From positions 1 through 47,949 of IMG/VR virus record IMGVR_UViG_3300043432_000149: 47,949 bases of DNA, one strand, 5' to 3'. The notes beneath the pieces were generated by a model. The model ran no database searches. It was given only the letters and a program-made list of their open reading frames with translations, and was not told the origin of the DNA. Source of the stretch: a virus (lineage: Duplodnaviria; Caudoviricetes). The position numbers and the translations under genes are program-made. Below are positions 3,175 to 20,252 of this stretch, in pieces; the first letter of the stretch is position 1, and each line of letters opens with the position of its first letter.

Positions 3175-3392
3175 CGCGCGGCGCTCGCTTTCGGTAGGCT
3201 GCCCAGGTTGGTGGTGGCGTGGCGCTTGTAATTGAGTGCGATCCGTCCGGCGCGCGTGGCGCCATCAATCGGATCGGGTTCTGGCGGTGGTGGCAGTCGG
3301 GGCGGCATCGGGACACCTGCGAACGGCAGGCCGCCGTCCAGGGCTCCCATGAGGCCGAGAAGGGCGGCAAGCTGGAGAGTGGAGCGCCTCAT
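3171..3392 (-). CDS. 73-aa hypothetical protein with hydrophobic N-terminus and Pro-rich middle
   Basis: MRRSTLQLAALLGLMG...; overlap-coupled to both neighbours. Confidence 0.5.
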   Translation of the reverse strand: MRRSTLQLAALLGLMGALDGGLPFAGVPMPPRLPPPPEPDPIDGATRAGRIALNYKRHATTNLGSLPKASAAR

Positions 3393-3961
3393 GTTCCGGC
3401 GCTCGCTTTCTGGGCCGGGAACAGGGCCTCGGCCTGCCTGATTGCTTCTTGTGGATCCACGCCTTGCCATACCAAGGCCTCGGCTTCGCGGCGGCGCTGA
3501 AGGCCCAGAAGCACTTCCCCCCCAGCCTTGCGCCATTTGCGGAGCTGATCGGGGATGCTCTCGAAGTCGCGTGCGCAGAGGTCGCCAGCCAGTCCGGTGG
3601 ATGCCTTGAAGGGCGCTCCGCCGAGGTTGAAGGCCAGGTCGATGAGTGCGCCGATCTGGGGCGCGGTGAGTTGAGATGTGAGATTTGCGCCGAGCTTGCC
3701 GTAGACGACGGAGGAAGCCGCCCGTATGTCGGCATCCAGCCAGGCGTCGGCTTGATCCTGCGTGATCGAGCCATCGGATGCCACCTTGTCATCCACGCGC
3801 AAGAGATGGCCGGTCCCGCAAGTCGGATTCCCCTTGAAGGAACCTCCGGGCGGGGCGGGCTTCCCGGTGGCATCGTCATAGAGATACAGGCGCGTGCCTT
3901 CGTAGTGTCGGATCAGGATGAGGGCGATTTCTCGCGCGGTTGGTGTGGCGGTTTGGCTCAT
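3389..3961 (-). CDS. GH24 (T4/P21-type) lysozyme
   Basis: IRHYEG..LYLYDD...TCGTGH, ALIDLAFNLG, GLQRRREAE motifs; GGAG RBS. Confidence 0.9.
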   Translation of the reverse strand: MSQTATPTAREIALILIRHYEGTRLYLYDDATGKPAPPGGSFKGNPTCGTGHLLRVDDKVASDGSITQDQADAWLDADIRAASSVVYGKLGANLTSQLTAPQIGALIDLAFNLGGAPFKASTGLAGDLCARDFESIPDQLRKWRKAGGEVLLGLQRRREAEALVWQGVDPQEAIRQAEALFPAQKASAGT

Positions 3962-4191
3962 GTCGTTTCTCCAAAGAGCGGAAGCTGTTCTTCGGTAATG
4001 GCTGGCCTGGCGTCGGCCTCCGCCTGGCAGTGTCCGCACAGGGGCGCGGCTGCGATGGCGGCGGGCGTGGTGGCGGCCTGTGGCCTGAAAAGCCCCGCGT
4101 TGCAGCCGGGAGCGGGGCAATCCCATGTGTAGATCGGCTCCATGCCGGGGAAGCTAATTTCCCGGCGGATGCCGGATGGGTCAAGGCGCAT
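3958..4191 (-). CDS. small Cys-rich hypothetical protein
   Basis: CPAPGC...CGHC; overlap-coupled. Confidence 0.55.
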   Translation of the reverse strand: MRLDPSGIRREISFPGMEPIYTWDCPAPGCNAGLFRPQAATTPAAIAAAPLCGHCQAEADARPAITEEQLPLFGETT

Positions 4192-8226: not shown

Positions 8227-8469
8227 ATGACCAGAACTGAGTTGCATGAACTGATCGATCGAATCCCTGAAAACCTGCTGGCTGCCGTCGAGTTGGCCGC
8301 ACGAGATGCCATGATCGCGGCTATCCCTGAGGAGGAAGAAGAGGTCAGTCCCGAGGAGGCTGCGGCCATTGACGAAGCGCTGGAGGAACTGAAGAACGGC
8401 GGACGGGTCTATACTACCGAGGAGCTGAGGAGGGAGCTGGGACTTGAGCCAATCCGTTCAATGGTCTGA
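8227..8469 (+). CDS. putative antitoxin of a RelE-type module
   Basis: Acidic 80-aa protein ending ...GRVYTTEELRRELGL, upstream of relE; GGAGG RBS; TTGACG-N17-GAGAAT upstream. Confidence 0.75.
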   Translation: MTRTELHELIDRIPENLLAAVELAARDAMIAAIPEEEEEVSPEEAAAIDEALEELKNGGRVYTTEELRRELGLEPIRSMV

Positions 8470-8644
8470 TAGATCAAAGCGCGACATGAAGCCGCTGCCT
8501 GCGTCGGCGCAGAATAAGATCACCTTGGCGGTCTACCGCTTCGCTGAAACGGAACGAGGCGACATCCTCAAGCTCAAGGGCCGCGAGGACCAATACCGCC
8601 TCCGCGTGGGCGACTACCGCGAGGGCGGGGCGGGTGCGGACTGA
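8444..8644 (+). pseudogene. C-terminally truncated RelE/ParE-family toxin
   Basis: GDILKLKG...YRLRVGDYR, then the sequence diverges and stops 7 codons later, losing the usual final beta-strands. Confidence 0.75.
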
Positions 8645-8648
8645 AGCG

Positions 8649-9080
8649 CTACAGGCGGAATCGACGACCCTGGATGACGGCGGGCATCAAATGGTCAAAA
8701 TCTGCATCGGTGGTGATCAGGTGCGCGCCAGTCGCCTTTGTGGCGGCGGCTATCCATAGATCGTTCTTGCCCATAACGCGGCTTCCGGCAGGGTGGGCAT
8801 GGGAGACAGCATCAATCTCAACGTAGGCATCAATCACCGCTCGACTGTTGATGTCGACCATTACCAGTGACGACAACGCGGCATCAAGGGCGGCTGCCTT
8901 CGGGCCTCCCCAGCTATTCCTTCGGGCCAACGATCTGATTTCCCCTTCCGTGACGACGCATGCCATGGGGCGGCGCGCGCCCTTGTTGGCGTCTATGAAG
9001 CTGGCTATTTCTTGCCCGACGGCGCCACGACGAGCCACCATCATCACGATCGCGGAAGTGTCCAGGAGGAGCCCGCTCAT
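8649..9080 (-). CDS. PIN-domain (VapC-like) ribonuclease
   Basis: LLLDTS, VTEGEI, MGKNDLWIAA, LITTDADF acidic active-site motifs. Confidence 0.9.
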   Translation of the reverse strand: MSGLLLDTSAIVMMVARRGAVGQEIASFIDANKGARRPMACVVTEGEIRSLARRNSWGGPKAAALDAALSSLVMVDINSRAVIDAYVEIDAVSHAHPAGSRVMGKNDLWIAAATKATGAHLITTDADFDHLMPAVIQGRRFRL

Positions 9081-10027
9081 CCGTTCAGTTCCCTGAGCGC
9101 GTCCAGCAGTTCCTCTTCGGTCTCCTCGCCCGGCCAATCACCCCACGGCGGGCCTCCGAGCGTCGCTTGCGGAAGGGGCGGCGCGGGGGCGATCTGTCGC
9201 CTCGATCTGGGCGGGACGGCAAACACTGCGTCTCCAGGCCCGGATTCTTCTTCTATGGATTCGGCATGTATTGCCCAGAGCTTTCCGGATCGCCTAAATA
9301 GGCCAAGACCTTCAGCAACTACGCTGTGGCCCCAAAGCCGGCGGAGCCTTTCTGGGTCGTGACGCCCTGTCCACGCCTGCACGATGTCGCCGTTCTGGAG
9401 CCGGAGGACAACATGAGAACTCGACGCCGAGATGGTATCAAGGATCGCCAGCGTGCGAACCGGCTCAGGGTCGGGCGTCTCTTGAGACAGGCGCAAGAGC
9501 CGCTCCCTGTCCTGTCCCCTGAGCAGGAGGGGCTTCGTTCTCGCCCCAATCCTGCCGAAGTCCAGGGATTCAAGGCCAGAATTTGCGAATGTCGCAAGGT
9601 TTGCGCACGTCTCTAGCAGGGGCTTGTCGGCCAAAACGAGATCGTCATTCCCGGAAAGCGCAGCCTCCAGGATGTCTACGAATAGCTCGATCGTTGTGGC
9701 GGATCCGAGAGCGGGAGGCGCCGCGCTCTCGAATAAACCCGGATCGAGCATGTCGGCAATCGGGCCTTGCCGAACCTCATCCAGCGTGAATGCCTCGACA
9801 TAAAGGGTTTGTGGGGAATTTCTTGACAACCCGACGATGTCGATGCCTGCGGCCCTGGTAAGCCAACCGGGTCTCGTTCCGGATTTCGTGCTCTGCCCCT
9901 CTGCCAAAAACCGGAGTGCCTGCTCTCCGCCAGCAATGAGGGACTGAATTAGCACCAGGAGCGCGCCGCCAGGGAGGCGGACGCCGGCGCTGTCGGGTCC
10001 GTTGATGATGATCGGGTGCTGTTTCAT
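9077..10027 (-). CDS. 316-aa PIN-partner protein of unknown function
   Basis: GGAGG RBS; ATGA overlap with the PIN gene; acidic C-terminal tail WGDWPGEETEEELLDAL. Confidence 0.75.
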   Translation of the reverse strand: MKQHPIIINGPDSAGVRLPGGALLVLIQSLIAGGEQALRFLAEGQSTKSGTRPGWLTRAAGIDIVGLSRNSPQTLYVEAFTLDEVRQGPIADMLDPGLFESAAPPALGSATTIELFVDILEAALSGNDDLVLADKPLLETCANLATFANSGLESLDFGRIGARTKPLLLRGQDRERLLRLSQETPDPEPVRTLAILDTISASSSHVVLRLQNGDIVQAWTGRHDPERLRRLWGHSVVAEGLGLFRRSGKLWAIHAESIEEESGPGDAVFAVPPRSRRQIAPAPPLPQATLGGPPWGDWPGEETEEELLDALRELNG

Positions 10028-10129: not shown

Positions 10130-10750
10130 CTACTTCTGCGCCGTGGCCTTGAAGTAGATGACAAACGGAGCAACCACCCTGAACTCCGCTCCTGCATAGA
10201 TCCGATTGCCTACCACGAGAACCTGAACCCCGGCCGCAGACTGAAGCCTGCCAAGTTCAAGGCGACGGTCAACAACGGCCGCAACCTCGTCTCCAATTTT
10301 GGCCGGGAAGCTCGGAGTGATGAGAACCTGTCCGCCGATGCGGTACTCGCCGAAATCCTCATCGAGCCTTATCCAGCGGGCCATTGGGTCATTAGACAAA
10401 TTGGGCGACTCATCGAGAGACAGGACAGCGATCTCTTGCATTAGTTTGTCTGGCTGGGCATCCACCGGGAACCTCCCTGACCGGATTACAGGTACCTTTG
10501 GCCGTGCATCTTTCGTTTGTAAGTTGCCACCAAAAAGCCAAGATACATCTACGCCCAAGGCACTGCAAACAGGGGCAAGTTTTCGCACGTCCATCCAGGT
10601 TTCACCGCGCACGAACTTCGATAGGTGGTTGTAATCCGTTTCCGCGTCGGCAGCAATCTGGCGCCAAGAACGCGGGTTCCCGCCCCTCCCCTTTGTGTCC
10701 TTGTCTCGGGCTTCGGAGATGCGCTCTCGAACTATTTTTTCAATGTCCAT
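10130..10750 (-). CDS. cI: CI-like immunity repressor (HTH plus degenerate S24-like beta domain)
   Basis: SWRQIAADAETDYNHLSKFVRGE...ALGVDVSWLFGG; divergent from a cro-like gene. Confidence 0.8.
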   Translation of the reverse strand: MDIEKIVRERISEARDKDTKGRGGNPRSWRQIAADAETDYNHLSKFVRGETWMDVRKLAPVCSALGVDVSWLFGGNLQTKDARPKVPVIRSGRFPVDAQPDKLMQEIAVLSLDESPNLSNDPMARWIRLDEDFGEYRIGGQVLITPSFPAKIGDEVAAVVDRRLELGRLQSAAGVQVLVVGNRIYAGAEFRVVAPFVIYFKATAQK

Positions 10751-10784
10751 GCCATGAGCGTATTCATCGACATTTCCAGAATCA

Positions 10785-10849
10785 ATAGGGATTGAGAGAG
10801 CTATACTCATCGGTTCCTCTTGACAATCAGGATTGTCAATCCTTATTCT
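10785..10849 (+). promoter_or_regulatory. rightward promoter PR (TTGACA-N18-TATTCT) with operators at 10785-10805 (half-site match) and 10826-10846
   Basis: ATCAGGATTGTCAATCCTTAT palindrome lies between the hexamers; same family as the PL operators. Confidence 0.8.
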
Positions 10850-10855
10850 TGGTGC

Positions 10856-11095
10856 ATGGACATCAAGAGCGAAATCAAACGGAGCAGGGAATCTCTGGGG
10901 CTGACCCGGAACGCGCTTTCTGTGCGACTGGGCCTGGACAACACCTACATCCGCAAAGTCGAGGCCGGAGAGATCGATCCCGCGCTGGCGACGCTTCGCA
11001 AGCTCGGGCGCTTCTTTCGCTCCCAGGGCAAGCCGTTCAGCGACCAGCTCGAGCAACTCTTGGGGCTCGCCCCCGCCCTGGAGCCGACCGGATGA
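10856..11095 (+). CDS. cro: Cro-like XRE regulator
   Basis: IKRSRESLGLTRNALSVRLGLDNTYIRKVEAG; first gene after PR. Confidence 0.8.
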   Translation: MDIKSEIKRSRESLGLTRNALSVRLGLDNTYIRKVEAGEIDPALATLRKLGRFFRSQGKPFSDQLEQLLGLAPALEPTG

Positions 11096-11124
11096 GGGGG
11101 CGAACCACCACCAAGGAGAAGACG

Positions 11125-11295
11125 ATGCACCACTGCTGTTGCCTGTACGACCCGAGCCGGCCGCCTGGACCTGATCCGGGGTGGGTGTGGCAAGCGGGAC
11201 ACATCCTGAAGCTTTACGTGCCCCATGGCGACACGAGGCAAGAGCTGCACGAGCACGTCCCTCCGCAGTGGGCGTGGAGGCCCGTCAAGTCATGA
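11125..11295 (+). CDS. 56-aa hypothetical protein
   Basis: AAGGAG RBS; MHHCCCLYDP... Confidence 0.45.
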   Translation: MHHCCCLYDPSRPPGPDPGWVWQAGHILKLYVPHGDTRQELHEHVPPQWAWRPVKS

Positions 11296-11312
11296 TCCAG
11301 GCCTCTCGACCT

Positions 11313-11564
11313 TCACCAGACCTCGGACGTCGGCGTCTCCATGTCGCCTTGCCTGGCGAGCGACCAATCGATGGTTGCCCCGAGCAGCTTGCGCCACAGG
11401 ATGCAGCCAGTCACGGCGCCGCCCTTCCTGTTTTCTTCGGTTTGCGGATTCTTGCCTTGGGCAACGTAACCGCTCACCCACATCACGCAGCCGTCCTTGA
11501 GACACTCGCTCTTCAGAATCGGGCACACCTTGCCGTCGAACTGCTTGTCCATCTCGAACACCAT
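11313..11564 (-). CDS. 83-aa Cys-containing protein, antisense to the PR operon
   Basis: AGGAGG RBS; CPILKSECLKDGCVMW motif. Confidence 0.6.
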   Translation of the reverse strand: MVFEMDKQFDGKVCPILKSECLKDGCVMWVSGYVAQGKNPQTEENRKGGAVTGCILWRKLLGATIDWSLARQGDMETPTSEVW

Positions 11565-11665
11565 ACAAATCCTCCTGAGAGCCTCGATGCCGGTCTTTGC
11601 CTGCGAAGCGGGCCGGCTTCGGGTCTCTCTAAATCCTAACTCTAACCCCGCAAAGCGCCTCTGTC

Positions 11666-12232
11666 ATGCACAAAAACGCCTCAGTTCATGCGCATAAAGG
11701 ACCGTCCGCATCCGAGATCGAGCAGGCCAGAGGGCTCGCCGATGCGGTGGATGCTGCATCGAAGCGCGCCATGCACAAGTATTTCGGCGACAACGGCGCA
11801 GTCCTCAAAGAGGCGCTCGGCGAGGCGCTCGACACCAGCAAGGGGAGCATCAGCCGCCAGACCCAGATCCGCGACCTGCCTGTGCAGTACCGGATACTCG
11901 GCGCGCTCAAAGTGCTCTGCCCGGAGCTGTGGCGCGCGATCCTGGACGCCTCTGGCGATGAGATGGGCATCGAGTGGCGGCCGAAGTCCGCCGTGCAGCC
12001 CTCGCTCGAAGGCGTGCTGGAGGCCATCACCGCCAAACAGATCGCGGCGTCCGAATCCGCTGCCATCGAGTACGCCGCCGCGAAGGACAACCGCATCGAG
12101 CCCATCGAGCTGGACTGGTGCGAGGAGGCATGGCGACACGAGGACCACCTTCGTGAGGCGATGCGCTCGAAGTTGCGGGCGATGGCCCAGGCCGGCGGCG
12201 CGCCGATCCAGCTTCGGAGGGCACAGCCGTGA
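11666..12232 (+). CDS. CII-like phage regulatory protein
   Basis: Position after cro; HTH-like segment; AAAKDNRIEPIE resembles the DGRI motif of the phage CII family. Confidence 0.55.
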   Translation: MHKNASVHAHKGPSASEIEQARGLADAVDAASKRAMHKYFGDNGAVLKEALGEALDTSKGSISRQTQIRDLPVQYRILGALKVLCPELWRAILDASGDEMGIEWRPKSAVQPSLEGVLEAITAKQIAASESAAIEYAAAKDNRIEPIELDWCEEAWRHEDHLREAMRSKLRAMAQAGGAPIQLRRAQP

Positions 12233-12402
12233 GCGTCATCGAAGCCCTCATTGACCTCCTTCTGGAAGTGATCGACTCCGAGCAGTTCCCCGGCGCGCTG
12301 CTGGTGGTGGGCCTACTGCTGGCCCTCAGCGTGTCGGGCGGCTGCCAACTCCGGTGCAGCGTCGAGCCGAGACCGAGCGCGCTGCCGGCGGAGGCTCCAT
12401 GA
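12229..12402 (+). CDS. 57-aa membrane protein
   Basis: GTGA/ATGA overlaps; GALLVVGLLLALSV hydrophobic segment. Confidence 0.55.
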   Translation: MSVIEALIDLLLEVIDSEQFPGALLVVGLLLALSVSGGCQLRCSVEPRPSALPAEAP

Positions 12403-12584
12403 GCAAGCAGCGAGAAATCCCCGAATGGATTATGATCCGGGGCAATCAACTGATTTGCGATCGGTGCGGCGCAACCCGCCCGCTTCATCTTCCTGCCGCC
12501 TTCGACGATGCCATCATGCAGGGAAGGGCGTTTTCGCTGGCCCACGAGCGATGCCCGGCACCGCCGGCGGAGGCGCAGCCATGA
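12399..12584 (+). CDS. 61-aa zinc-binding hypothetical protein
   Basis: CDRC...HERC; GGAGG RBS; overlaps. Confidence 0.6.
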   Translation: MSKQREIPEWIMIRGNQLICDRCGATRPLHLPAAFDDAIMQGRAFSLAHERCPAPPAEAQP

Positions 12585-12907
12585 CCGCCAACTTCACTGC
12601 AGGCTGCCTTTACGGCATTCCGTGCCGATTCTCTGCCCCCGGAGGCTATCCATTTCCAGGCTCCAGGCTGGCCACTCTCATCTCCTTGACTCTGGATCAG
12701 TCCGCAATCCAGCCAGCGACAGAGCCCCTTTTCGCTGAGGCCAACGGCTCCGGAGCGACCAACGCTTCTATACCTACCGACTCCGGAGCCGGCAACCTCA
12801 ACCGGGCCGAGGCCGGCCAGATAGCTGAGGCGGAATCCGCCGGGCGCGCGATTTATAGTGGCTCGCCGTCCGGCGGCCGACCTCAACCGGGGGGGGCTCG
12901 CCGATGA
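12581..12907 (+). CDS. 108-aa ORF overlying structured RNA hairpins
   Basis: GGAGG RBS and ATGA overlaps at both ends; protein has no recognisable motif. Confidence 0.45.
   Translation: MTANFTAGCLYGIPCRFSAPGGYPFPGSRLATLISLTLDQSAIQPATEPLFAEANGSGATNASIPTDSGAGNLNRAEAGQIAEAESAGRAIYSGSPSGGRPQPGGARR
12734..12891 (+). repeat. two tandem hairpin units, GCTGAGGC...ACCTCAACCGGG (12734-12806 and 12824-12891)
   Basis: Shared flanks with different internal stems: CGGCTCCGGAG/CTCCGGAGCCG and CCGCCGGG/TCCGGCGG. Confidence 0.6.
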
Positions 12908-13632
12908 ACCGCCGGGAGCTAGGTAGGGCGCTCAAGCGCGATCGGGAAGCCGCCGGCCTGCTGCCGAGGCAGATGGCAACCGCCGCGCGGATGTCGCTCG
13001 GTGGTCTGCTCGACTGTGAGTCGGGGCAAGGCGAGGAAGCGCACCTCATCAAGTACGCCGAGGCTCTGGCGAAGATCACGCGCCGGGAGCAGCGGGCGCT
13101 CAAAAAAGCTGGTGCCGTATCTCAGATGGGAGAGGGGGGCTCAACATGCAAGCCGCGAGGCCAGCAGGAGCCGGAGGACGCCGGTTCGAGTCCGGCCGGC
13201 ACCGTCAAAATCCACGGAGGCGTAGCTCAGATGGTAGAGCATCGGCCTAACACAGCCGAGCGCGCCGGTTCGGATCCGGCCGCCTCTGGGGTAGCGCGGG
13301 ATAGCTCAAGGGTGGAGCAGCAGGTCCATAGCCTGCCGGCCGCTGGTTCGAGTCCAGCTCCCGCCATCGAGCCAGCGGAGACGCCCGTTCAAATCGGGCC
13401 GCCGGTGCAGGTCCAACCCCTGCCCGGCGTAGGCCAGCAGGTTGCAGACACCGCCCTGGCTCCAATCCAATCTGAGATCACGGAGCAGCTCAGGCCGACA
13501 AAGACGCGGCGGGTTCAGGGTGCCCGCCGCGCCTCCGAGATCTCGCGTTTTTCCGTGGCGCGGGAGCCGCGCGTGCTCGGGCCGGTCCGGGCGGATTATG
13601 TGCCGCTCTCGGCCAGGGAGCTCGAGGCATGA
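12904..13632 (+). CDS. XRE-like HTH protein whose C-terminal part is encoded by tandem tRNA-like elements
   Basis: LGRALKRDREAAGLLPRQMATAARMS...ESG HTH, then GGVAQMVEH and GSSPA peptides, which are translated D- and T-arms. Confidence 0.6.
   Translation: MNRRELGRALKRDREAAGLLPRQMATAARMSLGGLLDCESGQGEEAHLIKYAEALAKITRREQRALKKAGAVSQMGEGGSTCKPRGQQEPEDAGSSPAGTVKIHGGVAQMVEHRPNTAERAGSDPAASGVARDSSRVEQQVHSLPAAGSSPAPAIEPAETPVQIGPPVQVQPLPGVGQQVADTALAPIQSEITEQLRPTKTRRVQGARRASEISRFSVAREPRVLGPVRADYVPLSARELEA
13111..13204 (+). ncRNA. tRNA-like element 1: full cloverleaf, anticodon loop replaced by a 25-nt insert capped by a GCGA tetraloop
   Basis: Acceptor GGTGCCG/CGGCACC; D-arm TCTC-AGATGGGA-GAGG; stem GGCTC/GAGCC; T-arm GCCGG-TTCGAGT-CCGGC. 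Confidence 0.75.
13216..13288 (+). tRNA. tRNA-like element 2 with an 8-nt anticodon loop (CTAACACA); no encoded CCA
   Basis: Acceptor GGAGGCG/CGCCTCT; D-arm GCTC-AGATGGTA-GAGC; stem TCGGC/GCCGA; T-arm GCCGG-TTCGGAT-CCGGC. Confidence 0.7.
13295..13366 (+). tRNA. tRNA-like element 3, Met(CAT)/initiator-like, loop TC-CAT-AG; no encoded CCA
   Basis: Acceptor CGCGGGA/TCCCGCC with a 1:72 mismatch; D stem GCTC/GAGC; stem GCAGG/CCTGC; T-arm GCTGG-TTCGAGT-CCAGC; discriminator A. Confidence 0.7.
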
Positions 13633-13811
13633 GCGTTTCAATCCCCTCTCGCGGGGCATGCAGCCGCGACAACCCCAACCGGGCGCCAGGCGCCCAAAAG
13701 CAGAGCGGCGGGAATCCGCCAAGACCGCCCGCCGCTCAGAATGGTGCCGAATGCGAGGAAAATATAACACTGCCCGTACTGCCGAGCAAGAGCCGGGGTG
13801 GCGCGTGCTGA
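13629..13811 (+). CDS. 60-aa bridging ORF overlying the CRISPR-like repeat and its antisense promoter
   Basis: ATGA overlap upstream; stop overlaps the start of the primase gene; begins VSIPSRG, which is the translated repeat. Confidence 0.35.
   Translation: MSVSIPSRGACSRDNPNRAPGAQKQSGGNPPRPPAAQNGAECEENITLPVLPSKSRGGAC
13635..13670 (-). CRISPR. solitary CRISPR-like repeat, GTCGCGGCTGCATGCCCCGCGAGAGGGGATTGAAAC (36 nt); not an array
   Basis: GTC start, CCCC-GCGAGA-GGGG hairpin directly followed by the 8-nt ATTGAAAC handle; single copy; no cas genes seen. Confidence 0.7.
13761..13789 (-). promoter_or_regulatory. antisense sigma70-type promoter TTGCTC-N17-TATATT with extended -10 TG, pointing at the solitary repeat
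   Basis: -35 at 13789-13784, -10 at 13766-13761; predicted start near 13754, about 85 nt before the repeat. Confidence 0.6.
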
Positions 13812-16081
13812 CGGAACAGGATGTTCTCGGACCCCTGCAAGCCGTGAAGGGTGCGGGGGATTGCAAGTGGACGGCGAAGTGCCCAGCGCACGAGGACGAC
13901 CGCAGGAGCCTGTCCATCTGCCTGGACGGCGGGAAGTGGCTCTTTAAGTGCTTCGCCGGCTGCTCGTTCTCCGAGATCATCGGCCGCATCGGGATTTCCG
14001 CCGCCGAGTGTTTCCCCGAAGACGAGAGGCGGGGGCGGGAAAAGAAGCCAATCCACAAGGCTGCAGCCAAGAAGGCCCCGATCCAAGAGGTCAAGAAGGC
14101 GGCGAAGGCGCCCCAGAAGCTGGGGAAGTTCGTGTGCGCCTATGACTACACGGACGAGGCCGGCGCGCTGCTGTACCAGAACTGCCGGTTCGAGGATCCG
14201 AAGGACTTCCGCCAGCGGCGCCCCGATGGCCAAGGTGGGTGGATCACCCCTTGGGGCCTCGGTGATGTGCGGCGCGTGATCTATCGCCTGCCAGAGGTCC
14301 GGCTCGCCATGAGCCTCGGCGCTCCGATCTGGATCACGGAAGGCGAAAAGGACGCTGATCGGCTGCAGAGCCTCGGGCTGACCGCCACCACGAGCGGGGG
14401 AGCCACGACCTGGCGCCCGGAGTTTGCCGACCTGCTGCAGGGGGCTGACGTGGTCATCGTGCCGGACCAGGACGTATCGGGCCGGATGTACCGGGACGCC
14501 GTCGGCAGCAGCCTGCAGGGCAGGGCAAAGCGAGTGCGGGTCGTGGAATTGCCGGTCGAGTTCCGGCAGAAGCACGGCCTGGACGTGTCTGATTGGCTCG
14601 ACGGAGGAAAGCGACTCGCGGATCTCCTCGAGCTCGAAAAGCAGGCGGCCGAGTGGTCTCCTGAAAAAAAAACGACTGGCGCCGACGCCATCCTGGCCCG
14701 CGGCGGAAAGCTCATGGAGGCGCCCTTGACCGATTACGGCAACGCTGAGCGACTCGCAGAGCTGGCCATGGATGACGACGGCGAGCCCCTCGTGCGGTGG
14801 TGCGAGGCGCGCGGGCAGTGGCTCGCGTGGGACGGAAAAGCCTGGCGATGGGACGAGACCGGGTCGGTCGAATCCCTGGCAAAGCGCACAGTGCGGCGCT
14901 TGCGAGAGGTCGCCGAGGCGATGAACCGCGATGGTATCGCGGACTTCGCTCTAAAAAGCGAAGCTCTCCCGCGGTTGCGGGCGATGATCGAGCTCATGCG
15001 GACAGAGCCGGGGGTTCCCGTCTCGATGGACCAGCTCGACGCCGACGACTGGACGCTGAATTGCCGCAACGGCGTGGTGGACCTGAGGAGCGGGAAGCTG
15101 TTCCCTCACTCCAAAGATCGGCTTCTGACCAAGATGGCGGAGGCCTCGCTCGTTCCTGGTGCATCTCGGACTCGGTGGATCGAGTTCTTGGGCTACATTA
15201 TGGGCGGCGACCAAAGCCGGGTGGACCTGCTGCAGCGCGGGATCGGCGCCAGTGCAAGCGGCGCGCCGTGGCAATACCTGATCTTCCTGTACGGGAGCGG
15301 GGCCAACGGCAAGAGCGTGTTCCTGGAGGTGGTCTCCAGGATTCTGGCGAGCTACGCCGGAGAAGCTGCGCAGGGGCTCCTGCTGCAGAAGAAGAACGAG
15401 GCTCACCCCACCGAGGTTGCTGACCTCATGGGGAAGAGGTTCGTGACCTCGGAAGAGATGGACCAGTCGAGCGTTCTCGACGAAGGGCGCGTCAAGCGGC
15501 TGACCAGTGGCCGGCCGATCAAGGCGCGCTTCATGCGGGAAGACCTCTTCGAGTTTCGGCCGACCCACAAGCTGTGGTTCGCCGTCAACCACAAACCGCG
15601 CGTTCGCGGCCAGGATGAGGGCATCTGGCGTCGCATCAAGCTGGTTCCCTTCGAGGTGCAGATCCCGCCGGAGAAGCGCCGCGACTTCGAGGAAGTGGTC
15701 CAGGGGTTCCTGCAGGAGCGGGACGGGATCTTTGCCTGGATCGTGGAGGGCTGCCTCAGGTGGCAGAAGGAAGGGCTGGGGGCCTCTGAAGCGGTAGATG
15801 CCGCGCACGAGCAGTACCGGACCAGCATGGACGATTTCGGTCAGTTCCTGGAGGACTGCGTTGCGATCGCTCCGGACGCTACGGCGGACTTCTGCAGGGT
15901 GCGCAGCTCGGACCTCTATGGAGCCTATGCGAAGTGGTGCGAGGAAGGCGGAGTCCGGAAGCCCATGTCGCAGACTGCCTTCTCGTTGCGCATGACGGAG
16001 CGCGGCTTCCAGAGCGAGAAGAAGGGGTGCGTGTGGTGGACAGGGATCACCCTGCAATCCAAGCGGGAGGATGCGCCATGA
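13805..16081 (+). CDS. primase-helicase: zinc-binding domain, TOPRIM, and P4/D5-family SF3 helicase
   Basis: CPAHED...KCFAGC; ITEGEKDAD; PDQD; TDYGNAER; Walker A GSGANGKS; GIWRR; likely GTG start at 13805. Confidence 0.93.
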   Translation: MLTEQDVLGPLQAVKGAGDCKWTAKCPAHEDDRRSLSICLDGGKWLFKCFAGCSFSEIIGRIGISAAECFPEDERRGREKKPIHKAAAKKAPIQEVKKAAKAPQKLGKFVCAYDYTDEAGALLYQNCRFEDPKDFRQRRPDGQGGWITPWGLGDVRRVIYRLPEVRLAMSLGAPIWITEGEKDADRLQSLGLTATTSGGATTWRPEFADLLQGADVVIVPDQDVSGRMYRDAVGSSLQGRAKRVRVVELPVEFRQKHGLDVSDWLDGGKRLADLLELEKQAAEWSPEKKTTGADAILARGGKLMEAPLTDYGNAERLAELAMDDDGEPLVRWCEARGQWLAWDGKAWRWDETGSVESLAKRTVRRLREVAEAMNRDGIADFALKSEALPRLRAMIELMRTEPGVPVSMDQLDADDWTLNCRNGVVDLRSGKLFPHSKDRLLTKMAEASLVPGASRTRWIEFLGYIMGGDQSRVDLLQRGIGASASGAPWQYLIFLYGSGANGKSVFLEVVSRILASYAGEAAQGLLLQKKNEAHPTEVADLMGKRFVTSEEMDQSSVLDEGRVKRLTSGRPIKARFMREDLFEFRPTHKLWFAVNHKPRVRGQDEGIWRRIKLVPFEVQIPPEKRRDFEEVVQGFLQERDGIFAWIVEGCLRWQKEGLGASEAVDAAHEQYRTSMDDFGQFLEDCVAIAPDATADFCRVRSSDLYGAYAKWCEEGGVRKPMSQTAFSLRMTERGFQSEKKGCVWWTGITLQSKREDAP

Positions 16082-16694: not shown

Positions 16695-17666
16695 ATGGCA
16701 GTTTATTTCATCAAGGCGGTTCCGAGCGGAAATATCAAAATTGGATACTCGCTCAATCCACAAAGCCGGATGGCCCAACTCCAAACCGGATCCTTCGAGA
16801 GGCTCGAACTGCTGGGATGGATCCATGGGGACATGGCCCTCGAGCAGGAGATCCACGCGAAGCTTGCCCAATTCCGCATGAACGGGACCGAGTGGTTCTT
16901 GAACTGCGCAGAGGTCAACGCGGAAATTGCGGCACGAATGACAAAGACGCGCCCGCCGCGCATTTACTTTGCTGGGAAGGTCCGGCCTGGATCAAGCGAT
17001 TACCGAACAAGGTTATTCAGTCGCCTGGGATCCGGCCAGGACTCGGGTCCAATGGTCGGCAGCTCCAAAAGATATAAACTGCGGATGCTTAACGGATGTG
17101 ACTTCGAGATCGATTACGTTGGGCCATTCGCTATTCGCAATCTAGAGTTCGCCGGAGACATTATTTGTGACGAGCACGGACCTGGATTCACGCACCTCGA
17201 TCGATTTGATGAGATCCATGGACCTAACACTCATGGATGCGGCCTTGTTGCCGCTACCAATGAGCTTTCAGAGAAATTCAATTCGAGCACCAAGGGTGAC
17301 ATTGGCGGAATTGGGGACCAGACGAGGCGGCTGCTGGTAGAGACCACAGACGAGCACGGGTATCCCAGCCAGTTTGGCCGGGATGTTTTGGTTGCCCGCT
17401 GCCTGGAGCAAATACGCTTTGCCGATCGTATTCACGCCTTCATTGATTCGTTCGATTGCTACGGGACAATCTTCGAGCTTGGATACGCGGCCGCGCTTGG
17501 GAAGCCCACATGGATCCATGTCGATTCGCGACTAGCAGGCCGCATTGAAGCTCTTTGCGGAGAACTTTGGTTTGCAATGAATGCTCCCAAAGTGACCGTC
17601 GTATCGGACGACCCATACTCCTTCAGTATGGATGAGGCTGAACCTGTCGAGGCTTCAGCTCAATGA
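16695..17666 (+). CDS. GIY-YIG/T5orf172 domain fused to a nucleoside 2-deoxyribosyltransferase-like domain
   Basis: VYFI...IKIGYS.NP..R...LQTG...EWF at the N-terminus; IYFAG...IRFAD...GTIFELGYAAALGKP at the C-terminus. Confidence 0.75.
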   Translation: MAVYFIKAVPSGNIKIGYSLNPQSRMAQLQTGSFERLELLGWIHGDMALEQEIHAKLAQFRMNGTEWFLNCAEVNAEIAARMTKTRPPRIYFAGKVRPGSSDYRTRLFSRLGSGQDSGPMVGSSKRYKLRMLNGCDFEIDYVGPFAIRNLEFAGDIICDEHGPGFTHLDRFDEIHGPNTHGCGLVAATNELSEKFNSSTKGDIGGIGDQTRRLLVETTDEHGYPSQFGRDVLVARCLEQIRFADRIHAFIDSFDCYGTIFELGYAAALGKPTWIHVDSRLAGRIEALCGELWFAMNAPKVTVVSDDPYSFSMDEAEPVEASAQ

Positions 17667-18154
17667 CCTTCCAGGCGGACAAGGCGCGGGGCGCCCTGGT
17701 TGAGGCGGTACTGATCGAGTATCACACCGGCCGCGGCTGGAAGGCGGAGCGCATCGACGTGGCGGAGCAGCTGCAGGGCGCCGGGGATCTGCGCCTCACC
17801 TGCCCCGTCACGCTCCGGGCGTCGGATCTGGAGGTCAAAGCCTCGTTCGGCCGCAACCCTCACTGCCTCATCGAGCTGGCCAGCTACGGCGGCCACGCCC
17901 TGACCCGGCACTCTGGGCTGATGTCCACCACGGCCGAGCAAATCGTGTTCGTGCGCTGGGTCATCCGAGAGGGCTACCTCTTCGACGTGGCCGAACTGCG
18001 ATCGCACCTCGGCGAGTGGACGAAGGCCTGGAATCCCCGCAACTTGCGCGACCAGGGCGCCCGCACATCCCGCCAGGTGCTGCCCGTGCCCTGGACGGAG
18101 CTGGCCCGCGCAGGCCGGACCATCACACTGCGCCAGATCGAGGCCGCCCCATGA
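17663..18154 (+). CDS. putative PD-(D/E)XK nuclease-like protein
   Basis: E...GD...LEVK pattern. Confidence 0.5.
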   Translation: MTFQADKARGALVEAVLIEYHTGRGWKAERIDVAEQLQGAGDLRLTCPVTLRASDLEVKASFGRNPHCLIELASYGGHALTRHSGLMSTTAEQIVFVRWVIREGYLFDVAELRSHLGEWTKAWNPRNLRDQGARTSRQVLPVPWTELARAGRTITLRQIEAAP

Positions 18155-18333
18155 CCACCACCAAGCCCATGCTGTACCGCTGCCGCCTCTGCCGCCGGGA
18201 GGAGCAGCACCCCTACCGCTACGAGCCGCGCCACTGCCCCGTGGACGGAGCGCTGATGCTCATCGACATCGGCGAGACCTCCGCCATGAGGCAGGCTCGG
18301 GGCGTACGTGGCAGCCAAGACCCGCTTTCGTAA
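18151..18333 (+). CDS. 60-aa zinc-ribbon protein
   Basis: CRLC...CPVD; ATGA overlap. Confidence 0.55.
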   Translation: MTTTKPMLYRCRLCRREEQHPYRYEPRHCPVDGALMLIDIGETSAMRQARGVRGSQDPLS

Positions 18334-18351
18334 CAACAGGAGACCGAGACC

Positions 18352-18849
18352 ATGGCCACGGCCACCATCAGGCCGCCCGAATCAATCATCGAACTGCTCA
18401 ACGAGGTGCGGCGCGAATACCATCCCGAACTGCTCGACGCCAGCTTCATCGTCCTGACTCGCTCGCCAGCCGCCCAGAAGGGCGGAAAGACGGTCCTGGG
18501 CTCGGTGAAGAAGGCCAGCGCGGAGGCTCAGGGCCTGGCCGGCGAGGGCGCGGACTACATACTCACCTTGAGCCTCAACGACTGGAACGCCCTCAGGGAT
18601 CGCCAGCGCCGCGCACTGCTGGATCACGAACTGTGCCACTGCGTTGGCGAAGAGGACGAAGAGACTGGCGAGATGAAGTGGAAGCTCCGCGGCCACGACA
18701 TCGAGGAGTTCACCGACGTGATCAGGCGTTGGGGCGCTTGGCCGGAGGACATCATCCAGGCTGTTGAGACGCTGCAGCAACTCGACCTGTTCGCGGTGGA
18801 TGAGCCAGCCAAGGACAAGAAGAAGGAAGCCGTGGGGGCTGGGCGATGA
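18352..18849 (+). CDS. putative phage metallopeptidase
   Basis: ALLDHELCH (HExxH) and LRGHDIEEF motifs. Confidence 0.85.
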   Translation: MATATIRPPESIIELLNEVRREYHPELLDASFIVLTRSPAAQKGGKTVLGSVKKASAEAQGLAGEGADYILTLSLNDWNALRDRQRRALLDHELCHCVGEEDEETGEMKWKLRGHDIEEFTDVIRRWGAWPEDIIQAVETLQQLDLFAVDEPAKDKKKEAVGAGR

Positions 18850-19016
18850 CCCAGCGCATCGAGCAAATCCGATGCGCGTGCCGGTCGCTGATGGAGCAAC
18901 TCGAGCATGAGGAGCACCGGGCGCCCGATTCCCCGATCGTGCTCGAGGCTCTGCACCAGCTCCAGGGGATCTCGGCTCAGGTAAGGGAGGGGGCAATGGA
19001 GGAATCGCATGGATAG
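18846..19016 (+). CDS. 56-aa hypothetical protein
   Basis: Translated by hand (MTQRIEQIRCAC...); overlaps both neighbours. Confidence 0.5.
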   Translation: MTQRIEQIRCACRSLMEQLEHEEHRAPDSPIVLEALHQLQGISAQVREGAMEESHG

Positions 19017-19602
19017 CGGATTCATCACGCGAGACAGCGGCGTCCGCGAGGAGTTCAAGACCGGCTCAAGGCGCGACACACGCGAAGGGAAAGGGCGGTT
19101 CGATTTGATCCCGCCAGGACCTCTCCGCCGCCTGGCGCAACTGTATGAGCGCGGCGCCCAGAAATACGGCGACCACAACTGGCAAAAAGGCCAACCGCTC
19201 TCGCGCTACCTGGACAGCGCCTATCGGCACCTGGTTGCCGTGGCCGAGGGCCAGGAGGACGAAGACCATCTGGCGGCCGTGGCATGGAATGCGTTCTCGC
19301 TGATGTGGACGCAGGCCAAGATCCGCGAAGGCAAACTGCCCCCAGACCTGTACGACCTGCCCGGCGCCGAGGATTCATCTGTCGCAACTAAGAAGCGGAT
19401 CCGCGTCGATCTGCATGCCCCATCTACCGCCAACCCCTACGAGCGGATCGCCGACGAGATGGAGCCAATCAGCGACGATCAACTGCGCGCCCGCTTCGAC
19501 GCCGCCCGAAAAGCCGCCAGGCAATGGCCGCCGCAGGGCGCCTACTTCGACGAACCGCAGGATGGGCGCGTGAAGGGCGCGGAAGGGAGCCTGCACGAAT
19601 GA
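19009..19602 (+). CDS. dATP/dGTP diphosphohydrolase-domain (DUF5664-like) protein
   Basis: GKGRFDLIP, GAQKYGDHNWQKG, SAYRHL, EDHLAAVAWNA. Confidence 0.85.
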   Translation: MDSGFITRDSGVREEFKTGSRRDTREGKGRFDLIPPGPLRRLAQLYERGAQKYGDHNWQKGQPLSRYLDSAYRHLVAVAEGQEDEDHLAAVAWNAFSLMWTQAKIREGKLPPDLYDLPGAEDSSVATKKRIRVDLHAPSTANPYERIADEMEPISDDQLRARFDAARKAARQWPPQGAYFDEPQDGRVKGAEGSLHE

Positions 19603-20252
19603 GCGGATCTTTCGAAATCATCGCCGGCCCGATGCGCGCCGACTCTGCCGTCATCGCGCCCTGGACCCGCACCTGGGGCAAAACCGGCGCCGCCATCGCG
19701 CTATGCTGGGAGGCCGAAAAGCAGCACGGCCCCGGCGCAGCCATCGCCATCCAGCCGGGCAAGAACACGCGTGACGGCGGGGAGTTCGTGGCACGATCAG
19801 GCGAACGCTACCCGGCTACGGTGCTCAAGGACGCCTACCAGATCACGGGCGCACTGGTTCGATCCGCGGCCCGCCTGGTCGTCATCGAGGAGGCCCACCT
19901 CTGGGATCACCCCCAGATCCTGATCGGCGCCTGCGCTGCCCTCCGAGCTCGCGGGATGCGCGTGATCCTGCTCGGCGTGCCCGAGGACCACATGGGCGCC
20001 GCCTTCGAGTGGTGGCAGCTCGCGCAGGGCGTCGCCGATCGTGTGCATCGCCTCACCGGCCGCTGCCAGTGCGGCAGGCGATCGACGCGGACGTTCCGGC
20101 ACGGGCTGAGCAACGCGCGAGTGCTGGTGGACGACCTGGGCCACTACGAGGGCGTTTGCTGGGTCTGCTGGCTGTTCTGCCGGCTGGCCAGAGCACTCCG
20201 GTCGCTGTGCCGAGTCGAGGGGCAGTACGAGGAGAGGGTGGTAATTCGGTGA
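19599..20252 (+). CDS. divergent thymidine kinase-like protein
   Basis: IIAGPM...GKT, VVIEEAH, CQCG...TRTFR, YEGVCWVC; P-loop interrupted by an insertion. Confidence 0.65.
   Translation: MSGSFEIIAGPMRADSAVIAPWTRTWGKTGAAIALCWEAEKQHGPGAAIAIQPGKNTRDGGEFVARSGERYPATVLKDAYQITGALVRSAARLVVIEEAHLWDHPQILIGACAALRARGMRVILLGVPEDHMGAAFEWWQLAQGVADRVHRLTGRCQCGRRSTRTFRHGLSNARVLVDDLGHYEGVCWVCWLFCRLARALRSLCRVEGQYEERVVIR

Follow-up and report, generated by a model that had tools for sequence, protein, structure and literature searches.

What are whole tRNA-like cloverleaves doing inside an open protein-coding frame of a phage? The window, meaning the whole stretch of DNA analysed here, is an entire viral record, a single contig of 47,949 bases. 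The original prediction described three tandem cloverleaves with altered anticodon loops within a 242-codon frame for an HTH protein, and proposed that they were kept for tRNA shape rather than for decoding. The three cloverleaves are present, 11 and 6 nt apart, and all the stem pairs named for them form (Table 1). The locus is larger than that account, which missed a fourth, permuted module.

Table 1. Positions in the window of the features discussed in the text.
Feature	Positions	Strand	Basis or remark
PIN-domain (VapC-like) gene	8649-9137	minus	Pfam PIN, E 1.4e-9; coupled to 316-aa gene behind repressor
Repressor	10130-10810	minus	faces cro-like gene
Cro-like HTH_3 gene	10820-11095	+	Pfam
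Sigma-70-like promoter	10820-10849	+	9+/12 consensus matches; ahead of cro-like gene
242-codon gene: XRE/Cro-type HTH, tRNA-derived linker, conserved C-terminal segment	12904-13632	+	
HTH domain coding part	12904-13110	+	AlphaFold, Pfam, GC3
Element 1, tRNA body	13111-13204	+	ARAGORN, folding
Element 2, tRNA body	13216-13288	+	ARAGORN, Rfam, folding
Element 3, initiator-like tRNA(CAU)	13295-13366	+	ARAGORN, Rfam, folding, viral C33 scan
Element 4, circularly permuted tRNA-like module	13369-13462	+	folding, ARAGORN after reordering, X5 relative
Element 4 closing stem	13369-13378 with 13451-13462	+	
Element 4 variable region	13379-13382	+	
Element 4 canonical T arm	13383-13399	+	
Element 4 acceptor 3' strand	13400-13406	+	
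Element 4 capping hairpin	13407-13423	+	
Element 4 acceptor 5' strand, then UA	13424-13429, then 13430-13431	+	
Element 4 degenerate D region	13432-13450	+	with A14, G15, G18, G19
3' arm of possible 22-bp long-range helix with 13107-13131	13466-13490	+	folding; borderline against chance
Conserved C-terminal 53-codon segment	13471-13632	+	79-83% identical to P0001/P0002; GC3 0.83
Single CRISPR-repeat-like unit, candidate solitary repeat	13635-13670	minus	Rfam RF01323, 24.6 bits, E 0.008, below gathering
Primase-helicase, D5 type	13805-16081	+	likely GTG start overlaps stop of 60-codon frame

The reading frame and its protein relatives

The frame is open from end to end and overlaps its neighbors by ATGA on both sides, as predicted, and 8 of 8 stop triplets fall out of frame. 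Openness taken alone is weak evidence, since 10.5%, 6.8% and 4.1% of 5000 dinucleotide shuffles, for three lengths, were open by chance. Among control tRNAs, six of 43 lay inside start-to-stop frames that are not gene-like, and translated tRNA arrays do give rise to false long proteins (P0005-P0007, P0009).

The 153-residue protein P0001 belongs to a cluster of three (P0001-P0003), the sole homologous cluster among 4577 candidates and one found again by a profile search of 1.84 billion proteins. It lacks the tRNA-derived middle, matching residues 1-61 of the window protein at 46% and the last 52 residues (190-241) at 79%, with a linker of 40 residues against 128 in the window. By eye, both linkers start with KAGA and both hold TALAP, which places the window cassette between these words. 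In the C-terminal segment, V/I and L/I swaps and a gap of one codon are among the differences. GC3 is 0.80 for the HTH part, 0.83 for both the C-terminal part and the primase, and 0.68 for the cassette, while the flanking 108- and 60-codon frames show no coding GC3 signal. In a relative assembled from run X4, all seven of the listed HTH substitutions are synonymous (a 237-nt piece with 11 differences, four of them near its ends and without listing). By homology, GC3 and substitution pattern, then, the 242-codon frame looks like a real gene, and the claim that the elements lie within a genuine HTH-protein frame holds up. P0001 has in residues 62-101 its own Pro/Ser-rich insert of 27 residues, in which the peptides GPSPAGS and VQPPP resemble translated T-arm hairpins; this insert may be a tRNA remnant.

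An AlphaFold model built from four sequences gives a five-helix HTH domain at pLDDT 85-94 (about 90) for residues 1-60, with residues 75-233 nearly all below 50; the linker is predicted to be disordered, and this four-sequence model assigns no confident fold to the conserved C-terminal segment. The best fold matches of the HTH domain are regulators of the XRE/ClgR/HipB type (E about 0.007), and Pfam HTH_31 matches below its cut-off (E 0.0011). The protein collection lacks the full 242-residue protein, holding from this contig just a 75-residue C-terminal call, and no HTH-only relatives of 30-132 residues were found. Searches of viral contigs with the ORF, P0001 and the homolog alignment, and of metagenomes with the alignment, returned no confirmed relative; a DNA pattern for the C-terminal segment had 0 matches in viral contigs and two chance matches in metagenomes. 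The single genome match proved to be an unrelated histidine-kinase-like gene, and blastn of the region against annotated phages matched generic tRNAs alone.

Four tRNA-shaped modules

ARAGORN finds elements 1-3, with scores of 106.7, 115.1 and 116.0, and no other tRNA in the whole contig. Pseudogene-like or undetermined calls had been expected of such programs; ARAGORN flags a possible pseudogene for element 2 alone, and Rfam passes elements 2 (53.8 bits) and 3 (52.3 bits) above the tRNA gathering threshold but not element 1, which draws just a partial match to a tmRNA model at 21.9 bits. None of the three encodes CCA after position 73, as had been noted.

Element 1 has U10 and perfectly paired acceptor and T stems. 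Its anticodon loop, 25 nt long as first described, amounts to a 7-nt loop plus an in-frame insertion of 18 nt (six codons) that looks like a second copy of the neighboring stem and variable region. The loop holds CAU at 13145-13147 and the GCC-GCGA-GGC hairpin of the earlier description; the hairpin was rejected as a significant GNRA feature, as 11% of 5000 shuffled loops were equally stable. Three of eight ways of leaving out 18 nt put CAU at the anticodon position, and because purines persist at 32-33, element 1 is probably dead for decoding. Element 2 has 21 of 21 stem pairs, G73, a 4-nt variable loop and the 8-nt anticodon loop CUAACACA; apart from a single surplus loop base and G1-U72, it is built like a normal tRNA. 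Neither element has the 7-nt anticodon loop, and on sequence grounds the two probably do not decode normally, element 2 being likely either non-decoding or a +1 reader. A role for element 2 as a +1 frameshift suppressor was considered. An apparent YrlA match at 13172-13244 was discarded as a tRNA-dimer false positive, of the kind that Chen 2014 (PMC4201824) warns of.

Bacterial initiator tRNA-fMet combines an unpaired 1:72, A73 and a CAU anticodon with three G-C pairs at 29-31 and A11-U24. Element 3 has the unpaired 1:72 (C1/C72), A73 and CAU, but A29-U41 plus two G-C pairs in its anticodon stem, and C11-G24 in a D stem of elongator type. All 20 of its 20 stem pairs form, and the invariant A21 is replaced by G. 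The loop, UC-CAU-AG as originally read, is 7 nt long yet carries C33 in place of the U33 of canonical decoding tRNAs, together with G38. A pattern scan for CAU tRNAs with C33 gave 43 matches (38 distinct) in 42 viral loci. Stems are intact in 39 of the 43 (at least 6 of 7 acceptor and at least 4 of 5 anticodon pairs), 21 encode CCA, seven begin YGCGGGR like element 3, and none has its G38. The bodies of these tRNAs are very different from each other, while their non-CAU neighbors in the same loci have U33 in 57 of 59 cases and C33 in two. C33 might also arise by drift, and selection for it stays conjectural. The closest annotated match to element 3, 77% alike, is the tRNA-Met of Pseudomonas phage PfAn1, with C33, C38 and CCA, and the ARAGORN score of element 3 equals the median of 103 calls in viral loci. 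Judged by these comparisons, element 3 is probably functional and probably decodes. We found no literature on C33 in phage tRNA(CAU) in a search of mostly open-access papers; the supplement of PMC10264068 may list cases.

In element 4, what would be the 3' half of a tRNA comes before the 5' half. The stretch 13369-13465 folds as a four-way junction (z -3.79, 0 of 200 shuffles), and of the six canonical T arms in the genome, four lie in the cassette. A descriptor for the permuted order (T arm, acceptor-like stem-loop, D arm) has one match in 48 kb. When the halves are reordered to tRNA order, ARAGORN makes a default call at 107.5 with a GGC anticodon, against 0 of 300 controls; the cut points were picked after the fold had been seen, and the controls were cut likewise. 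That would-be anticodon lies buried in the closing helix, and element 4 cannot decode as written. The closing stem has 10 bp with a 2-nt bulge and extends 6 bp past what a tandem duplication would give. Element 4 is not part of a tRNA dimer, since the space upstream is too short for a 5' half and a T arm is missing downstream, and blastn against annotated phages gave no full-length match. A 12-nt inverted repeat (13340-13351 with 13367-13378) would unfold the T arm of element 3 and the closing stem of element 4; by eye, it is lost in the relative from run X5.

In build, element 4 resembles YrlA RNAs (RF02553; Chen 2014, PMC4201824), with, in order, a variable region, a T arm, a closed acceptor-like stem-loop and a D region, all set on a closing stem, and with G15 and C48 available for a Levitt pair. 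It is not a member of that family: RF02553 has no match on 13362-13480; within 13051-13520 the Ro60-binding motif GNCGAAN0-1G occurs once, at 13068, where the HTH domain is encoded; Pfam scans of the window ORFs (69 scans, some repeats) found no Ro60/TROVE; and the D stem is degenerate, in a module that would be translated in frame. With the permuted tRNAs of algae and archaea and with two-piece tmRNA, as covered in Soma 2014 (PMC3978253), it shares the 3' half coming first, an intervening piece in the acceptor loop and a junction in the anticodon arm. Unlike them, it lacks a bulge-helix-bulge (it has the 2-nt bulge alone), belongs to a bacterial virus and has its GGC buried.

Slot exchange, genome setting and competing folds

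Two contigs from one study bear on how stable the cassette is, one from run X4 (428 nt, depth 4.8) and one from run X5 (151 nt, depth 2.3); as assembled contigs from runs that are probably DNA, they are silent on expression. The X4 contig is about 95% identical to the window and diverges at 13125 into a different tRNA in slot 1, of Thr(CGU) type, with a paired anticodon stem, a 7-nt CU-CGU-AA loop and A for G18 in the D loop. In the 30 letters shown of this tRNA, the gene's frame alone of the three is stop-free, by eye. The X5 contig matches 13377-13437 at 60 of 61 positions; the T arm and acceptor strand in its slot 3 differ from those of element 3, yet they end at that element's distance and in its frame. 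Run X5 also contains a piece sharing the HTH variants of X4. The frame appears kept in both fragments over the 30 letters shown of each new tRNA, and it runs through the cassette-free P0001-P0003; no full-length relative came up in the searches. The ordinary Thr(CGU) loop in slot 1 of X4 shows that loop alteration is not constant at this locus. Slot contents appear to turn over at about 95% flank identity, on the little data that two short, low-depth contigs of one study provide. The sequencing run that best matches the window is a freshwater metagenome, possibly its source, and a freshwater sediment run from a separate study has 13101-13251 identical letter for letter.

The gene layout is that of a temperate siphophage, with an antirepressor, RecE/RecT, primase-helicase, terminase, portal, HK97-type capsid and tail genes; the ORFs that were scanned included no integrase. 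The promoter ahead of the cro-like gene is the only sigma-70-like one on the + strand from 10700 to 14000 and is likely the early rightward promoter. From 11666 to the primase start at 13805, the stop of every frame overlaps the next frame. Six relatives of the primase (27-38% identity) have zero tRNAs within 5 kb, and the upstream 188-residue gene as a query gave a single weak match. A Myxococcota/Planctomycetota lead from a neighboring cargo gene (Atlas) was too weak for naming a host.

The 108-codon frame just upstream (12581-12907, +) folds at z -2.39; the motifs ACCTCAACCGGG and CTCCGGAGC recur in it, and a G8 run closes it. Against X4, 12 of its 17 listed changes alter a residue, so it is not under protein constraint, though translation would stay continuous; one extra G in the G run of X4 would fuse it to the HTH start. 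Probably it acts as a structured RNA or DNA site, with translation serving for coupling alone.

Other features were noted in passing. A nucleotide-metabolism cluster on the + strand (16695-20252) of this temperate-type phage, with T5orf172 fused to a nucleoside 2-deoxyribosyltransferase-like domain, a dATP/dGTP diphosphohydrolase and a thymidine kinase-like gene, hints at a modified base. A phage lysozyme gene (3392-4126, minus) is placed next to the recombination genes, within the early region that reads leftward rather than among the late genes, and a RelE-like toxin gene with an acidic upstream partner (8227-8644, +) converges on the PIN gene. On the minus strand, 3 nt past the stop of the HTH gene, the CRISPR-repeat-like unit, the sole one in the contig, consists of a hairpin plus a ATTGAAAC end. 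It sits in the 60-codon frame (13629-13811), the link between HTH gene and primase; its 3' handle is followed by the antisense of conserved C-terminal codons, and a terminator-like hairpin lies on the minus strand at 13704-13721. It matched no array in viral contigs or plasmids. By analogy with the solitary repeats described in PMC10651486, it is a candidate repeat of the Racr kind.

Two results concern alternative structures. If 13107-13131 paired with 13466-13490, the resulting 22-bp helix (-30.2 kcal/mol) would surround the cassette, and element 1 would come unfolded. Self-complement aside, the 5' arm pairs equally well at two other places in 19,170 scanned windows, and two of 57 control windows had a better long-range match, so the long enclosing helix is borderline. 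The G20 of element 1 was not counted as an adaptation to this helix, G20 being common in tRNAs. Equilibrium folding of 13100-13495 predicts element 2, at pair probabilities of 0.44-0.95, but not elements 1 and 3, at 0.11 at most, in models that ignore tertiary contacts and folding order; the low predicted probability of element 3 counts against its easy processing.

Readings of the locus

We lean, with modest confidence, toward a dual-coding, exchangeable tRNA cassette carried in the early lytic mRNA and excised by host tRNA processing, with element 3 as its payload. Its observed basis is the cloverleaves, the open frame, the cassette-free homolog and the other tRNAs in the slots of a relative; the comparison draws on few relatives, a three-member protein cluster and two contigs. 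The cassette would be transcribed from the early promoter at 10820, and each transcript would meet one of two fates, translation into the HTH-linker-C-terminal protein or folding and cutting by RNase P and 3' nucleases. RNase P and 3' trimming with CCA addition are the established maturation pathway of tRNAs, and the host would add CCA to those released here. Ribosomes must enter the cassette, because there is no stop after the HTH part, and would be handed on to the primase through the 60-codon frame. The need for the C-terminal segment and for primase coupling would hold the frame open, and an incoming tRNA or indel would have to avoid in-frame stops and stay a multiple of three, a rule that would explain the 18-nt insertion in element 1 and the frames of the relative. 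Element 3 would be the likely payload as an initiator-like tRNA(CAU), with elements 1 and 2 as likely non-decoding derivatives. The C33 loop of element 3 would help it evade an anticodon nuclease, whether of host or prophage origin, and stand in for the host tRNA that is cut.

Such a cleavage-resistant substitute is plausible. Nuclease-insensitive phage tRNAs have been described (van den Berg 2023, PMC10264068), and in the reports on the T5 tRNA-Lys against PARIS (PMC11464382) and tRNA-Thr against P2-OLD (PMC12445682), rescue comes from resisting cleavage and replacing the host tRNA. The window resembles these cases in its anticodon-loop changes and in having reported target classes (CAU here, Thr in the relative). 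The reported tRNAs differ in being free-standing and decoding, and their nucleases have been tested or predicted; a 7-nt loop is absent from elements 1 and 2.

A different account, doubtful but deserving of weight, would have the array kept for tRNA shape, with elements 1, 2 and 4, and perhaps 3, acting either as RNase P/Z sites that adjust how much HTH protein and primase is made, or as decoys to which defense nucleases aimed at tRNAs would bind. The fully paired acceptor and T stems of elements 1 and 2, with the changes in the anticodon arm, fit it, and it is at its strongest for element 4, which is non-decoding, folds well and is kept at 60 of 61 positions beside a different slot-3 tRNA; YrlA RNAs mimic tRNAs, and RNase P is reported to cut one of them (PMC4201824); the long helix could turn element 1 off. 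As an account of the whole array it is opposed by the canonical loop in slot 1 of the close relative and by the recurrent, intact type of element 3, and two of its supports are no better than chance or nearly so, the element 1 loop hairpin and the long helix with its two better controls in 57. The original argument for shape over decoding can thus stand at most for elements 1, 2 and 4. Its decoy role found no support: the phage tRNAs tested in PMC12445682 and PMC11464382 work by replacement, and the former paper argues against competitive inhibition. Processing of the early mRNA at tRNA-shaped sites, also part of the original prediction, is a likely consequence. It is rather improbable that the elements are a recently captured, decaying cluster in which the loop damage is young, the RNAs have no function and the protein tolerates any linker. 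A single inserted base would account for element 2, and an 18-nt insertion for a large part of element 1; G1-U72, U10 and the degenerate D region of element 4 look like early decay, no element encodes CCA, and slots turn over at about 95% flank identity. Against this, repeated and precise replacement by whole tRNAs, with edges and frame unchanged, is difficult to account for unless it brings a benefit, element 3 is of a recurrent type and scores at the viral-locus median, and the closing stem of element 4 is 6 bp longer than tandem duplication gives. Highly improbable is an incidental frame, in which the HTH part or a separately started C-terminal peptide alone matters and the tRNAs are ordinary intergenic genes: the 75-residue gene call, the spurious long frames of tRNA arrays and the chance openness of 4-11% speak for it, but no stop follows the HTH part, P0001-P0003 unite both ends in one protein, two fragments carrying other tRNAs retain the frame, and HTH-only relatives of 30-132 residues were not found.

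A bolder extension of the dual-coding reading is a long shot: the linker would be a cartridge slot for tRNA-shaped counter-defense RNAs, into which the phage would exchange entire tRNAs and mimics, including a Ro60-independent permuted one, as long as the frame stays intact; the C33/G38 tRNA would be the antidote to the phage's own PIN nuclease, whose gene neighbors the repressor; and folding of the cassette and its cutting by RNase P would both set free nuclease-proof RNAs and throttle the HTH protein and the primase. The PIN gene and the 316-residue gene (together 8649-10027, minus) are possibly a prophage defense pair; PADLOC had no match on the pair, and look-alikes of the 316-residue gene fall in unnamed clusters, mostly of Myxococcota/Planctomycetota. 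Enteric VapC is reported to target tRNA-fMet (PMC10264068), and by that analogy alone element 3 might protect the phage from its own nuclease, an unsupported link.

The closest arrangement in print is selC (tRNA-Sec) nested in the selB frame of Alphaproteobacteria, for which regulation through the nested tRNA is a prediction (Mukai 2021, PMC8124441). Both have a whole same-strand tRNA in an open frame, an overlap between the stop of that frame and the start that follows, a length that tends to keep frame, a CCA that is often not encoded and an either-or model of translation against tRNA processing. In the selC case a cellular gene carries a single cognate tRNA, within its C-terminal extension. 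The phage HTH gene of the window has its three tRNAs and the permuted module in an internal linker, with a conserved segment beyond them; it also has an empty-state homolog, and a close relative has other tRNAs in the slots. Our search, of mostly open-access papers, found no literature on whole-tRNA nesting or in-frame tRNA cassettes in phage genes. New here are the four-module cassette in an internal linker, the cassette-free homolog, slot exchange at 95% identity and an in-frame permuted mimic.

Annotation pipelines forbid overlap of tRNA and protein genes, and the gene caller here retained just the 75-residue tail. If the dual-coding reading is true, phages can nest several tRNAs, along with a permuted mimic, in a conserved protein-coding gene, nested tRNAs are exchanged faster than flanking codons change, and tRNA supply is tied to early gene expression, either-or for each transcript. 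The window and P0001 make a natural filled-versus-empty pair for the nested-tRNA regulation model, and the recurrent C33 variants of tRNA(CAU) are a direct lead to an enzyme that reads U33.
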